A stretch of 1,595 bases of DNA from Escherichia phage ECO95 1-6-1: the sequence record OR845813.1; one strand, 5' to 3'. A program made the translations under genes and the position numbers. Below are positions 1 to 1,595 of the stretch, one piece after another. Position 1 is the stretch's first letter. Every line of letters begins with the position of its first letter. Below the pieces are notes generated by a model, which had not been told where the DNA came from, did no database searches, and worked only from the letters and a program-made list of their open reading frames with translations.

Positions 1-1426
1 CATCAACATTCATGGCACCGGCCACTTTCGTGGACTGCTGCCCGGCGATTTCGGTTTCTTCATTTCCTGTAATACTGGCCAGCCGGTTTCCTTTTACCGC
101 CTGGCTGAAGTCGCCAGCACTGACCTGCTGTATGGCTCCGGCCATCAGCGTGGCGGTACCCAGTACTGTGATTTTATCCGTGGCTTTCACCGTGGTTTCA
201 CGGCTGACCAGTTCGCGCCGTTCCGTGTCGGCTTTCACCGTCCGCGCCATCGATGTTTCACTGATGGTCTGATCCGTCTGGCGTACCCAGTCTCCTGCCT
301 GTGTCACGCGTTGCGATACTTCCGCGCGCTGCTGTTGCAGCTGTTCGCCGGGCTTAATGTCCGGCAGACTGGTGCCATCCGGCAGCGTCTGCCTGATAAA
401 GGGCTTGTCCGGTCTGCCGCCCGTAAACGCCACTTCTACCAGCGTTCCTTCCGGTGGAAACTGGAACATTCCCGAATCGTTACCGGCCATTGGCACCGGC
501 AGCGGTACGGCGGAATATACCGGCGTCTGGTTGTCCGGGTTGCCGTCCGCGTCAAGCAGCTGCACGTCAACAGCGTACCGTGGCCGGAACGGGTCGGCAA
601 AATTACCGCTTTTTACGGCCTCGCTTGGTGCCACTACCCTGGCCAGTTTGGGCAGGTGAAGACCTGAAGCCAGTTCCGGGTAATGGCTTTCTATCTGACG
701 CTGCGCCGGTGTTTTCTGTAATGGCTGACCTGTGGCGCGGTTCCGTGGTGTCCACGTGATGGTCATTGTGTCATTCGTCAGATGAACTTTGGTCACGCGT
801 TCCCCGTTCACGTCCACGCCCGGACGAAGACTCTGGATCACCGGCAATGTCATGGAATTACCGCCCGCCGTTCCCTGGCTGAACTCTGCCGGGATTTCTA
901 CCGGACGTCCGGCAAACAGCGCCTTTTCTGCGCCGCCGACATACAGCGAACCATCCGGCAATGGATACCAGATGTAATCCGTGATACTGAATGCCCTGCC
1001 CAGATTATTCAGCAGCTGGTATCCCGTCCCGTTATGGGTGAAATGGGGGATCGGTTTATCACTGTACGGCACATCCGGTACCGCAATGCTGATCCCGCTG
1101 TTTTCCTCCAGCCATCCGGCCACATCGCGCAGTGTTGGATGCTGGAATGAGCATGGCCACATCCGCTCAAATACGCCAGCCAGCTCGCGGACGAACAGAC
1201 GCTGATAACCGTTTTCGGCAGGCTGTGAGCGCTCCACATAGCCGGTAAACCAGCGCAGAAGTAAACCGGAATACCCCACATCCAGCCGTACCAGTTTGCC
1301 GGTGTAGTCTGTGGTCGTCTGTGCCGTAATAAAGCCACGTCCACAGCTGTTCAGCTCCAGCACCAGACTGGCGTCAGCCAGGTGTATTTCATCCGTTGAA
1401 AGGTAAAGGCGTTTTACTGGTTTCAT
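1..1426 (-). CDS. Large structural protein, partial (C-terminus beyond the left edge of the window); putative phage/prophage tail or baseplate hub/spike-type protein with a C-terminal gp5-like octapeptide beta-helix repeat region. Alternative in-frame start at 1429 (Met-Met).
   Basis: Manual reverse-complement translation from ATG at 1426..1424 gives 475 consecutive sense codons to position 2 with no stop: MKPVKRLYLSTDEIHLADASLVLELNSCGRGFITAQTTTDYTGKLVRLDVGYSGLL ... TDKITVLGTATLMAGAIQQVSAGDFSQAVKGNRLASITGNEETEIAGQQSTKVAGAMNVD. Codon choice is enterobacterial-like and GC3-rich (ctg, ccg, gcc, ggc, cag, acg frequent). AGGT lies 5 nt upstream of the 1426 ATG. The start overlaps the stop of the upstream gene (TAATG). 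Functional call rests only on the C-terminal repeat pattern and gene arrangement, not on a database match. Confidence 0.88.
   Translation of the reverse strand, partial: MKPVKRLYLSTDEIHLADASLVLELNSCGRGFITAQTTTDYTGKLVRLDVGYSGLLLRWFTGYVERSQPAENGYQRLFVRELAGVFERMWPCSFQHPTLRDVAGWLEENSGISIAVPDVPYSDKPIPHFTHNGTGYQLLNNLGRAFSITDYIWYPLPDGSLYVGGAEKALFAGRPVEIPAEFSQGTAGGNSMTLPVIQSLRPGVDVNGERVTKVHLTNDTMTITWTPRNRATGQPLQKTPAQRQIESHYPELASGLHLPKLARVVAPSEAVKSGNFADPFRPRYAVDVQLLDADGNPDNQTPVYSAVPLPVPMAGNDSGMFQFPPEGTLVEVAFTGGRPDKPFIRQTLPDGTSLPDIKPGEQLQQQRAEVSQRVTQAGDWVRQTDQTISETSMARTVKADTERRELVSRETTVKATDKITVLGTATLMAGAIQQVSAGDFSQAVKGNRLASITGNEETEIAGQQSTKVAGAMNVD
2..145 (-). other. Coding region for six tandem octapeptide units (hydrophobic-x-Gly-x5), putative beta-helix segment at the C-terminal side of the large CDS; truncated by the window edge.
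   Basis: Translation of 145..2 on the minus strand parses cleanly into MAGAIQQV / SAGDFSQA / VKGNRLAS / ITGNEETE / IAGQQSTK / VAGAMNVD. Gly is at position 3 in 6 of 6 units and position 1 is V/I/M in 5 of 6. Resembles the VxGxxxxx repeat of T4 gp5-type and VgrG-type beta-helices (established knowledge). Assignment is by pattern only. Confidence 0.45.
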
Positions 1427-1428
1427 CA

Positions 1429-1595
1429 TTAACCTAAAGCATCATTGACGGGCTTCAGTACCTTGCGTTCAAACCACGTCAGTTTTTTTTCATCCTCTCC
1501 GGCACTCTGGCCACCGGATTGTCCCGTACTGCTGGCCGTCTGTTTTTTTGCCGTTGTTTTACCGGTTGCCCTGGCTTCCCGCTTCTCCTGTACGC
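1429..1595 (-). CDS. 3' end (last 54 codons plus stop) of an upstream co-directional gene, partial; hypothetical protein with a low-complexity Lys/Thr/Ala/Gln/Ser/Gly-rich C-terminal region; possibly a tail assembly or tape-measure-type protein (speculative).
   Basis: Minus-strand frame with first full codon at 1593..1591 reads VQEKREARATGKTTAKKQTASSTGQSGGQSAGEDEKKLTWFERKVLKPVNDALG then TAA at 1431..1429, open to the window edge. The stop overlaps the downstream ATG at 1429..1427 by one base, typical of translationally coupled operon genes. Only 54 residues are visible, so product identity is not determinable. Confidence 0.6.
   Translation of the reverse strand, partial: VQEKREARATGKTTAKKQTASSTGQSGGQSAGEDEKKLTWFERKVLKPVNDALG
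1432..1435 (-). promoter_or_regulatory. Weak Shine-Dalgarno-like element (AGGT) for the downstream CDS, embedded in the last codons of the upstream gene.
   Basis: Minus-strand sequence gct tta GGT TAA TG ATG: AGGT ends 5 nt before the ATG at 1426 and 2 nt before the ATG at 1429. The spacing favours 1426 as the initiation codon. Partial match to the SD consensus only. Confidence 0.3.

Follow-up and report, generated by a model that had tools for sequence, protein, structure and literature searches.

A reading frame missing from an ORF list is the first part of a phage gene for a probable fused baseplate hub and spike protein

The stretch of DNA analysed here (the window, 1,595 nt) is 100% identical to GenBank OR850886 and corresponds to positions 881-2475 of a 7,841-nt parent record (L001). 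Two genes, each incomplete and each on the minus strand, were found in it. The larger, at 2..1429, represents codons 1-476 of the 567 in a CDS for a baseplate hub-spike protein, a call based on the open frame, a match to PHROG 2258, dN/dS values and annotated orthologues. The complete gene is situated at L001 606..2309 (minus strand), encodes 567 aa and ends in TAA; its remaining 91 codons and the TAA lie to the left of the window (L001 606-880), and an intrinsic terminator is found just 3' of the stop codon. The smaller gene, at 1429..1595 on the minus strand, is represented by its 3' end (the last 54 codons and TAA). In full (L001 2309-2854), it encodes a 181-aa protein of the HP1_ORF34 family (Pfam PF25759, E 3e-54), labelled 'baseplate complex protein' by PGAP.

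It is apparent from the sequence that the larger gene opens with tandem start codons, ATG-ATG (1424..1429, minus strand). The first ATG shares 1 nt with the TAA of the upstream gene (TAATGATG), a junction that is kept in phage ESSI2_ev015 and in an E. coli prophage, and this TAATG overlap probably couples translation of the gene to that of the preceding HP1_ORF34-type gene. The second ATG aligns with the lone Met that opens most homologues; database entries of the protein are 567 aa long in some cases and 566 aa in others.

The window was also scanned for other elements. No promoter-like sites (0) were obtained, and no Rfam match at E values up to 1. Terminator-like sites numbered 3, as compared with 1.9 expected; all are on the plus strand inside the gene and were taken as chance occurrences. 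Programmed frameshifting at the A7/A8 runs of the upstream gene was considered but not adopted, since the A8 run lacks conservation.

An earlier note on this DNA had described a minus-strand frame that opens with ATGATG at 1429/1426, runs to the left edge of the window and is missing from the ORF list supplied with the sequence. Translation of 2-1429 bears this out. The product begins MMKPVKRL and the frame is stop-free to position 2, over 476 codons, or 475 if counted from the second ATG at 1426; the stop codon that had been looked for past position 1 is the TAA in L001. None of the 15 ORFs listed, each of at least 20 aa, is the long frame, because the list leaves out ORFs that run off an end, and the upstream gene is unlisted for the same reason. 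All 15 fall within 12..1406 and, as the earlier note had maintained, all are embedded in the long frame: 10 are antisense, and the five on the minus strand (ends 378, 600, 755, 1344 and 1160) are out of frame, since (1429 - end) mod 3 is 1 or 2 for each. The warning that annotation from the list alone would mis-call the locus was likewise justified. A single 567-aa minus-strand gene is called at the orthologous place by RefSeq in ESSI2-type phages and by PGAP in E. coli prophages, and neither calls a plus-strand gene there. ORF tracks that omit edge-truncated frames conceal the only real genes of short windows, as both are concealed here, and what they leave is just spurious embedded ORFs, so that annotations or 'unannotated region' calls made from them are wrong. 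The absence of the larger gene from the list is an artefact of the ORF track; the gene itself encodes a phage structural protein of an ordinary kind, one already catalogued. The earlier note was silent on the identity of this gene and on the second partial gene at 1429-1595.

PHROG 2258 ('baseplate protein') matches aa 2-470 of the window's translation over positions 1-469 of a 544-position profile (E 2.4e-249, 829 bits), and tblastn identified orthologues in HP1 (orf35), HP2, K139 (orf39), F108, phiO18P and ESSI-2. The gene is the orthologue of HP1 orf35, K139 orf39 and ESSI-2 gp01, whose products (533 aa, 543 aa and, for ESSI-2/ESSI2_ev gp01, 567 aa) align with it over their full length and show no essential difference from it; they are labelled only 'baseplate protein' or 'hypothetical'. 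Identity to the ESSI2_ev015 protein is ~90% (510/567 residues). A literature search on the function of HP1 orf35 yielded nothing specific. In HP1-like Pseudoalteromonas phages, a 'cell-puncturing device' is reported to have been detected by HHpred in this tail module (PMC10612066).

Gene order is also conserved. The tape-measure gene (TMP), DUF2590, J, I, fibre, chaperone, orf33 and orf34 are followed by the hub-spike gene, and this order matches in ESSI2_ev015, the E. coli prophage, HP1, K139 and a further locus, L004. The HP1, K139 and ESSI-2 genes likewise close the tail operon, each with an HP1_ORF34-family gene immediately before it, and in K139 there is a terminator after orf39 too.

The C-terminal part of the protein resembles the spikes of contractile tails in its sequence. 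N-terminal helices and an OB-fold domain, of the type found in the gpV, gp5 and VgrG injectors, were assigned to aa 244-352 (374..700, minus strand); the Pfam OB-domain score is 23.1 bits, just below the gathering cut-off of 23.8, and a profile match to VgrG gave an E value of 3.4e-6. The start and middle of a gp5-like beta-helix needle follow at aa 353-476 (2..373, minus strand), and the predicted beta-helix extends to approximately aa 508, beyond the window. By phmmer, aa 413-508 match the beta-helix of T4 gp5 (E 3e-8), and a Pfam Gp5_C repeat is present at aa 463-485 (23.3 bits as compared with a cut-off of 20.4). This region would form an intertwined trimer.

After the beta-helix come a predicted helix, an HxH motif (HSH, at aa 534-536 in the full-length protein and thus beyond the window) and another helix. 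Among close homologues 117/117 have an HxH, as do 10/12 representatives of the fused form and 56/62 of the spike-only form; two fused homologues (P0138 and P0142) lack it, and a Pfam search of these for a PAAR-type tip found none. An HxH iron cage is a hallmark of spike apex domains (bioRxiv 10.1101/2023.02.25.529910). The structure of the tip and its binding of metal are uncertain in the present protein, because the region around HxH is modelled as helix-loop-helix, whereas P2 gpV has a short beta apex.

The N-terminal part, aa 1-228 (746..1429, minus strand), is assigned as a hub module on the basis of predicted structure. In the AF2 monomer model (mean pLDDT 87.5), on which the assignment relies, this part has the central hub fold of Mu gp44, P2 gpD, T4 gp27 and the N-terminal half of VgrG. 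Foldseek searches with the full-length model returned VgrG and the eCIS spike proteins AlgoCIS, Pvc8 and Afp8 (E 1e-20 to 1e-15), and on the AlphaFold model and these fold searches together the protein is predicted to be a VgrG-like hub-spike fusion. The two parts are joined by a fusion linker at aa 229-243 (701..745, minus strand), delimited by alignment and by a dip in pLDDT to ~75. The linker varies in length among fused homologues, and stand-alone spike genes start at about this point; in alignments with spike-only proteins, the match begins at aa 242-250 of the query and at residue 5-13 of the spike-only protein. Split forms are present in L004, in locus L005 and in Vibrio phage PV94, where a hub gene of 228-233 aa is followed directly by a spike gene of 254-340 aa.

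In sequence, the identity of the hub module to the corresponding region is 43-44% for HP1/HP2 and 36% for K139. No match to Phage_GPD (Pfam) was obtained at E values up to 1, and a search of PDB sequences with the module profile returned no hub below E 0.27, the hits being weak ones, to the N-terminal domain of the P22 tailspike (E 0.01) and to the spike of AlgoCIS (E 0.27). Alignments by hhalign, of the hub profile to Mu gp44 and of the full profile to Mu gp45, are plausible in register, but their probabilities (2-4%; 2% with Mu gp44) are not significant, so sequence-level membership of those families cannot be claimed. In length, too, the module differs, since Mu gp44 and P2 gpD each exceed it by ~100 residues. 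These observations would suit a reading in which aa 1-228 are an accessory domain (receptor-binding, enzymatic or adaptor) carried on a gpV-like spike, with the true hub encoded by one of two neighbouring tail genes that have no assigned role, the orf33-like (254 aa) or the orf34-like (181 aa) gene. That arrangement is considered improbable. The model points to the hub fold for aa 1-228, and no other hub, spike or PAAR gene is annotated in a complete 43-gene relative.

It is slightly less probable still that the gene derives from a non-phage contractile machine (a T6SS VgrG, an extracellular contractile injection system or a tailocin) that delivers effectors or kills cells and does not inject DNA. 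The best full-length structural matches are indeed to VgrG and eCIS spike proteins, fusion of hub to spike is the architecture of VgrG, the source record carries an UNVERIFIED_ORG flag and many Salmonella have the sequence in their chromosome. Against this, scores with the NCBIfam VgrG models TIGR03361 and TIGR01646 are 14.6 and 16.8 bits, as compared with cut-offs of 186 and 122, so that the protein is not a member of those families. The neighbouring genes encode phage tail-fibre, gpJ, gpI, tape-measure, holin and endolysin proteins, and capsid, terminase, portal, integrase and repressor genes accompany the locus in complete relatives; these are phage tail, lysis, head and lysogeny functions, and no T6SS or eCIS genes were seen nearby. 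Orthologues are present, moreover, in the isolated infectious phages HP1, K139 and ESSI-2. The gene is assigned to a temperate myophage of the HP1/ESSI-2 type (Peduoviridae), which is most likely resident in Salmonella as a prophage.

The earlier note had taken the long frame to be the dominant gene of the window, and measures of coding constraint agree. With a stop-codon frequency of 0.039 expected from composition, the probability that 476 codons stay open is ~6e-9; the longest open run observed is 480, whereas 2,000 shuffles gave a maximum of 350 and a mean of 144. Comparison with two relatives gave a dN/dS of 0.05-0.07, indicative of strong purifying selection, with differences by codon position of 44/29/218, and one search gave at least 1,270 homologues, the other 733 representative clusters. 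Of 10 embedded ORFs compared with two relatives of ~84-85% DNA identity, 9 are broken in one or both of them, through loss of the start codon or the appearance of 1-4 stops, and the exception is a 54-aa ORF at 436-600 (minus strand); the embedded ORFs are not conserved and were ruled out as alternative genes. The proposal that the long frame is a chance, non-functional or pseudogene frame and that plus-strand ORFs such as 782-1150 (122 aa) or 311-667 (118 aa) are the true genes could draw on the occurrence of long antisense ORFs in GC-rich DNA and on the fact that 782-1150 stays open in the E. coli mip270 relative, but it is refuted by these data, as dN/dS and codon-position bias suit the minus frame only, no relative's annotation calls the plus-strand ORFs, and the minus-frame protein has numerous homologues and a confidently predicted fold.

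Taken together, the data argue that 2-1429 (minus strand) contains codons 1-476 of a real, intact 567-aa structural gene whose product would be the central hub and spike of a contractile-tail baseplate in one polypeptide, a reading to which a probability of about 0.9 is assigned. How such a protein would work can be proposed by analogy with Mu gp44 and gp45, P2 gpD and gpV, T4 gp27 and gp5, and T6SS VgrG. Three copies would form a trimer, in which the hub modules (aa 1-228) would make up a ring that fits the three-fold symmetry of the spike to the six-fold symmetry of the tail tube and from which assembly of the baseplate starts. A rigid needle would be built from the OB domains together with the intertwined beta-helix; at its tip, the HxH motifs, one from the C-terminal part of each chain, may cage a metal ion (Fe in P2 gpV). 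Contraction of the sheath would then drive the needle across the outer membrane of the host, with the tube behind it. In the late tail operon the gene comes last, with the terminator after it.

A bolder proposal, judged somewhat less likely than an even chance, is that the whole central puncturing complex of HP1/ESSI-2-type phages is one polypeptide, in which a minimal hub of 228 aa is joined to an OB fold, a beta-helix and a tip of its own, and that the tip may be a new type of apex, a helical hairpin with an HxH metal cage in place of the gpV beta apex. If the single-polypeptide reading is true, the family would be a natural fused-versus-split experiment, because close relatives keep two adjacent genes. 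On the main reading, the fusion of hub to spike, usually cited as the hallmark of VgrG, is found in a classical temperate phage lineage beside split relatives. The present result is an annotation refinement of an already known gene and not a new kind of system. It would replace a widespread 'hypothetical' or 'baseplate protein' label with a specific role, that of a fused central hub and membrane-piercing spike, for a protein found in HP1, K139 and ESSI-2-type phages and in prophages of Salmonella, E. coli, Enterobacter, Citrobacter and Cronobacter.

Other systems share out hub, spike and tip over two to three proteins (T4 gp27, gp5 and gp5.4; P2 gpD and gpV; VgrG and PAAR). In Mu (gp44 and gp45), P2 (gpD and gpV) and R2 pyocin (PA0628 and PA0616), two genes are used where a single fused chain is predicted here; with these systems there is no significant sequence similarity by hhalign, their hubs are all ~100 aa longer, and their spikes have a shorter beta-helix than the gp5-like one of the present protein. 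In the Mu/P2-type spikes the HxH motif is part of a short beta apex and is 12 residues away from the end; here it is flanked by two predicted helices, and the distance to the C-terminus is 31 residues. In T4, the C-terminal helix of gp5 is homologous in sequence to the beta-helix described above, and gp27 appears to have the same hub fold on the predicted model. The T4 complex, however, consists of three proteins and is tipped by a PAAR protein (gp5.4) instead of HxH. The PDB match to gp5 spans the beta-helix only (residues 481-576), and scans with Pfam and NCBIfam detected no lysozyme or hydrolase domain between the OB fold and the beta-helix. With T6SS VgrG the protein has in common the fused architecture. 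It differs from VgrG and from the eCIS spikes (Afp8, Pvc8, AlgoCIS and Streptomyces CIS) in that it is encoded in a phage genome and has no effector or adaptor domains, and its HxH tip motif is part of the chain, while in VgrG, Afp8 and Pvc8 the cap is a PAAR-type protein of its own.

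Translation of the minus strand from window position 1429 to position 2 gave 476 sense codons, beginning MMKPVKRL, with no stop codon. The earlier note had reported a frame of 475 codons, open from the paired ATGs at 1429/1426 to the left edge, and this was borne out; 475 is the count from the second ATG (1426). Given the base composition of the window (1,595 nt, 57 % G+C), stops would be expected at 3.9 % of codons, and the probability of 476 open codons is approximately 6e–9. The longest open run was 480 codons, as compared with a mean of 144 and a maximum of 350 in 2,000 shuffles. 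It is apparent that the open run is beyond chance.

The mechanical ORF list (20-aa minimum) contains 15 ORFs, all within 12–1406. The long frame is absent because the tool, as it states, omits ORFs running off an end, which is the reason the earlier note had presumed. As it had also claimed, every listed ORF is embedded in the long frame: ten are antisense to it, and the five on the minus strand lie in other frames, (1429 – end) mod 3 being 1 or 2 in each case. The earlier note was thus right both in what it observed and in how it read it, the omission being an artefact of the ORF track. The 3′-end of the upstream gene (1429–1595, minus strand) is likewise missing from the list; since that gene is also partial, neither of the two genes in the window is complete.

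The window is 100 % identical to part of GenBank record OR850886.1 (7,841 nt, unannotated), in which the frame continues, as anticipated, past window position 1 to a stop codon. The complete ORF (606..2309 of that record, minus strand, TAA stop) encodes 567 aa, and 91 codons therefore lie to the left of the window. A strong intrinsic terminator is situated 13 nt past the stop, outside the window (593..575, minus strand); it consists of an 8-bp G+C-rich stem, AGCCCGCAT-AAT-GCGGGTT, followed by T7, and closes the late tail operon. This parallels K139, in which a T39 terminator is annotated after orf39. The record is flagged UNVERIFIED_ORG and is a 7.8-kb, 4.9x-coverage node from the assembly of a Salmonella Kentucky phage isolate; a chromosomal protein of Salmonella enterica, found on 108 contigs, has the same sequence as the encoded protein (100 % identity, 566 aa). 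An ESSI-2-type prophage residing in the propagation host, and not the isolated phage, is the most likely source of the window.

The upstream gene encodes an HP1_ORF34-family ‘baseplate complex protein’ (181 aa in full; PF25759, E 3e–54), of which the window holds the last 54 codons and the TAA. This TAA shares one base with the first ATG of the long frame (TAATGATG), and the junction is kept in relatives; the conserved 1-nt overlap suggests that the two genes are translationally coupled. The single start Met of most homologues aligns with the second ATG in the family alignment, and database entries are divided between 567 and 566 aa, so the start is placed at 1429 or 1426. Two homopolymers, T8 at 1484–1491 and T7 at 1543–1549 (plus strand), are read as A8 and A7 in the Lys/Gly/Ser-rich, low-complexity C-terminal part of the upstream gene. 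Neither of the two relatives checked has an unbroken A8; one has the full A7 run and the other A6. They are probably Lys codons and no slippage site, and are liable to sequencing error.

Selection was assessed against Escherichia phage ESSI2_ev015 and one E. coli prophage, both with approximately 84–85 % DNA identity. Differences at codon positions 1/2/3 numbered 44/29/218 and 41/24/192, and dN/dS was 0.05–0.07. In at least one of the two relatives, nine of the ten embedded ORFs tested are disrupted by added stops or by loss of the start codon. Among these frames, the long one alone is a selected gene. The exception, a 54-aa ORF with a TTG start (436–600, minus strand), is open with its start kept in both; as it is short and lies out of frame where the conserved OB domain is encoded, codon conservation probably accounts for it. 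RefSeq and PGAP place exactly two minus-strand genes beneath the match, in phages and in E. coli genomes alike. Of 5,426 complete E. coli genomes, 46 have the match, in each case as a single copy on the chromosome. Scans of the window revealed no Rfam match and no promoter-like site.

The protein matches PHROG 2258 (‘baseplate protein’, E 2.4e–249) and has more than 1,270 homologues in a large protein database, mostly named ‘hypothetical protein’. The nearest (98–100 % identity) are on Salmonella enterica chromosomes, followed by Citrobacter, E. coli, Enterobacter, Cronobacter and others. In a phage collection, tblastn identified orthologues in ESSI-2 and the ESSI2_ev phages (Peduoviridae, Quadragintavirus), Salmonella phages SW3, SW5 and SI7, Yersinia vB_YenM_324, Aeromonas phiO18P, Haemophilus HP1 and HP2 (orf35), Pasteurella F108, and Vibrio K139 (orf39) and Kappa. 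Gene order is conserved: tape measure, DUF2590, gpJ-like, gpI-like, tail fibre, fibre chaperone, orf33-like, HP1_ORF34-family and, at the operon end, the gene described here. No other hub, spike or PAAR gene is annotated in one complete 43-gene relative, and Pfam searches of the neighbouring tail proteins revealed none.

Evidence for a spike came from the C-terminal half (numbering of the full protein). A gp5/VgrG OB domain was found at aa 309–345 (Pfam, 23.1 bits, below the cut-off of 23.8), a Gp5_C repeat at aa 463–485 (Pfam, above cut-off) and a match to the T4 gp5 beta-helix at aa 413–508 (phmmer, E 3e–8). The family profile matched VgrG chains (E 3.4e–6); NCBIfam VgrG models scored far below their cut-offs. 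The protein has no lysozyme domain, and relatives encode an M15 peptidase endolysin elsewhere. The N-terminal 290 aa matched nothing by sequence.

An AlphaFold2 model from a 35-sequence alignment had a mean pLDDT of 87.5, exceeding 90 across most of aa 1–170. The N module matched the MuSo2 43-kDa tail protein (score 19.4; 217 aa at 2.4 Å), a Neisseria homologue (18.4), the Mu gp44 hub (18.1), E217 gp41 (17.4), VgrG fragment c3393 (17.1) and the pyocin R2 hub (15.7). Longer stretches (297–370 aligned residues) matched fused hub-spike proteins of contractile injection systems and T6SS, and the C-terminal half matched the spike-only proteins P1 gp5, Mu gp45, R2 spike, P2 gpV and phi92 gp138 (7.2–9.1). 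The top Foldseek ranks, full-length and collinear, were AlgoCIS, Anabaena, PVC, Streptomyces and Afp8 spikes and VgrG (E 1e–20 to 1e–15). Over aa 155–224 (window ~758–967), the hub-module profile has a weak match (E 0.01) to residues 20–88 of the P22 tailspike chain, in its N-terminal head-binding domain; this could reflect a shared small beta domain, or chance.

An HSH motif is located at aa 534–536. The aligned HxH is present in all 117 close homologues, 10 of 12 fused representatives and 56 of 62 spike-only representatives. HxH is described as the signature conserved universally among spike apex domains, and the cage around an iron ion in P2 gpV is made by three of these motifs (bioRxiv 10.1101/2023.02.25.529910). 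In the monomer model the motif is predicted to lie between helices at aa 513–532 and 545–561, unlike the short beta apex of P2 gpV. The fused homologues P0138 and P0142 (545 and 530 aa) have no HxH and a different, Cys-containing end (…CASICPFTGKPH… and …CDFCLITGTPH…, respectively). This may be an alternative tip, possibly metal-binding or PAAR-like; Pfam detected no PAAR domain in either.

An exhaustive phmmer search of 1.84 billion representatives yielded three classes among the best 150: fused proteins (526–612 aa; 12), stand-alone spikes (~230–440 aa; 62), whose own first residues align to query aa 243–567, and stand-alone hubs (228–244 aa; 7), aligning to aa 2–228. On two metagenomic contigs a 228–233 aa gene directly follows the HP1_ORF34 gene, and the next gene, which it overlaps by 19–28 nt in another frame, is a 317–340 aa spike gene; one of these spikes (L004) is 35 % identical to aa 243–555. 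Vibrio phage PV94 is also split (gp46, then gp47). Since the modules are separate adjacent genes in relatives, the window gene is a fusion of two modules. At the join (aa ~229–243, window 701–745) the alignment is gappy and model confidence dips. Hub/spike overlaps of 10–28 nt were seen in split relatives, at L004 6669–6687, L005 2634–2661 and L008 3154–3163; as the frames differ, a single indel could interconvert split and fused forms.

By analogy with homologous machines of solved structure, the axial baseplate complex would be built from three chains. Their hub modules would make a ring between the three-fold needle and the six-fold tube, joining the two, and gpJ/gpI/DUF2590 wedges would assemble around this ring. 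The needle would comprise the OB domains and an intertwined beta-helix, its tip stiffened by the HxH cage, and sheath contraction would push it through the outer membrane. To our knowledge, every solved baseplate has hub and spike at 3:3, so their fusion would be stoichiometrically neutral, in keeping with fused and split forms side by side.

The gene, which codes for a structural protein of a phage or prophage, is an ordinary one. GenBank already contained its exact sequence, PHROG 2258 is the catalogue entry for the family, HP1 orf35 and ESSI-2 gp01 are named ‘baseplate protein’ in RefSeq, and an HHpred-based paper lists a ‘cell-puncturing device’ in the corresponding tail module of HP1-like phages (PMC10612066). 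The present analysis adds a reading of one chain as hub, linker, OB fold, beta-helix and HxH tip, and thus a finer annotation of a well-known machine type. A less conventional reading, a single-chain hub-spike-tip with a helical HxH apex (probability approximately 0.4), would be modestly interesting if true. The protein resembles VgrG in having its hub fused to its spike and P2 gpV in its built-in tip, with split relatives alongside.
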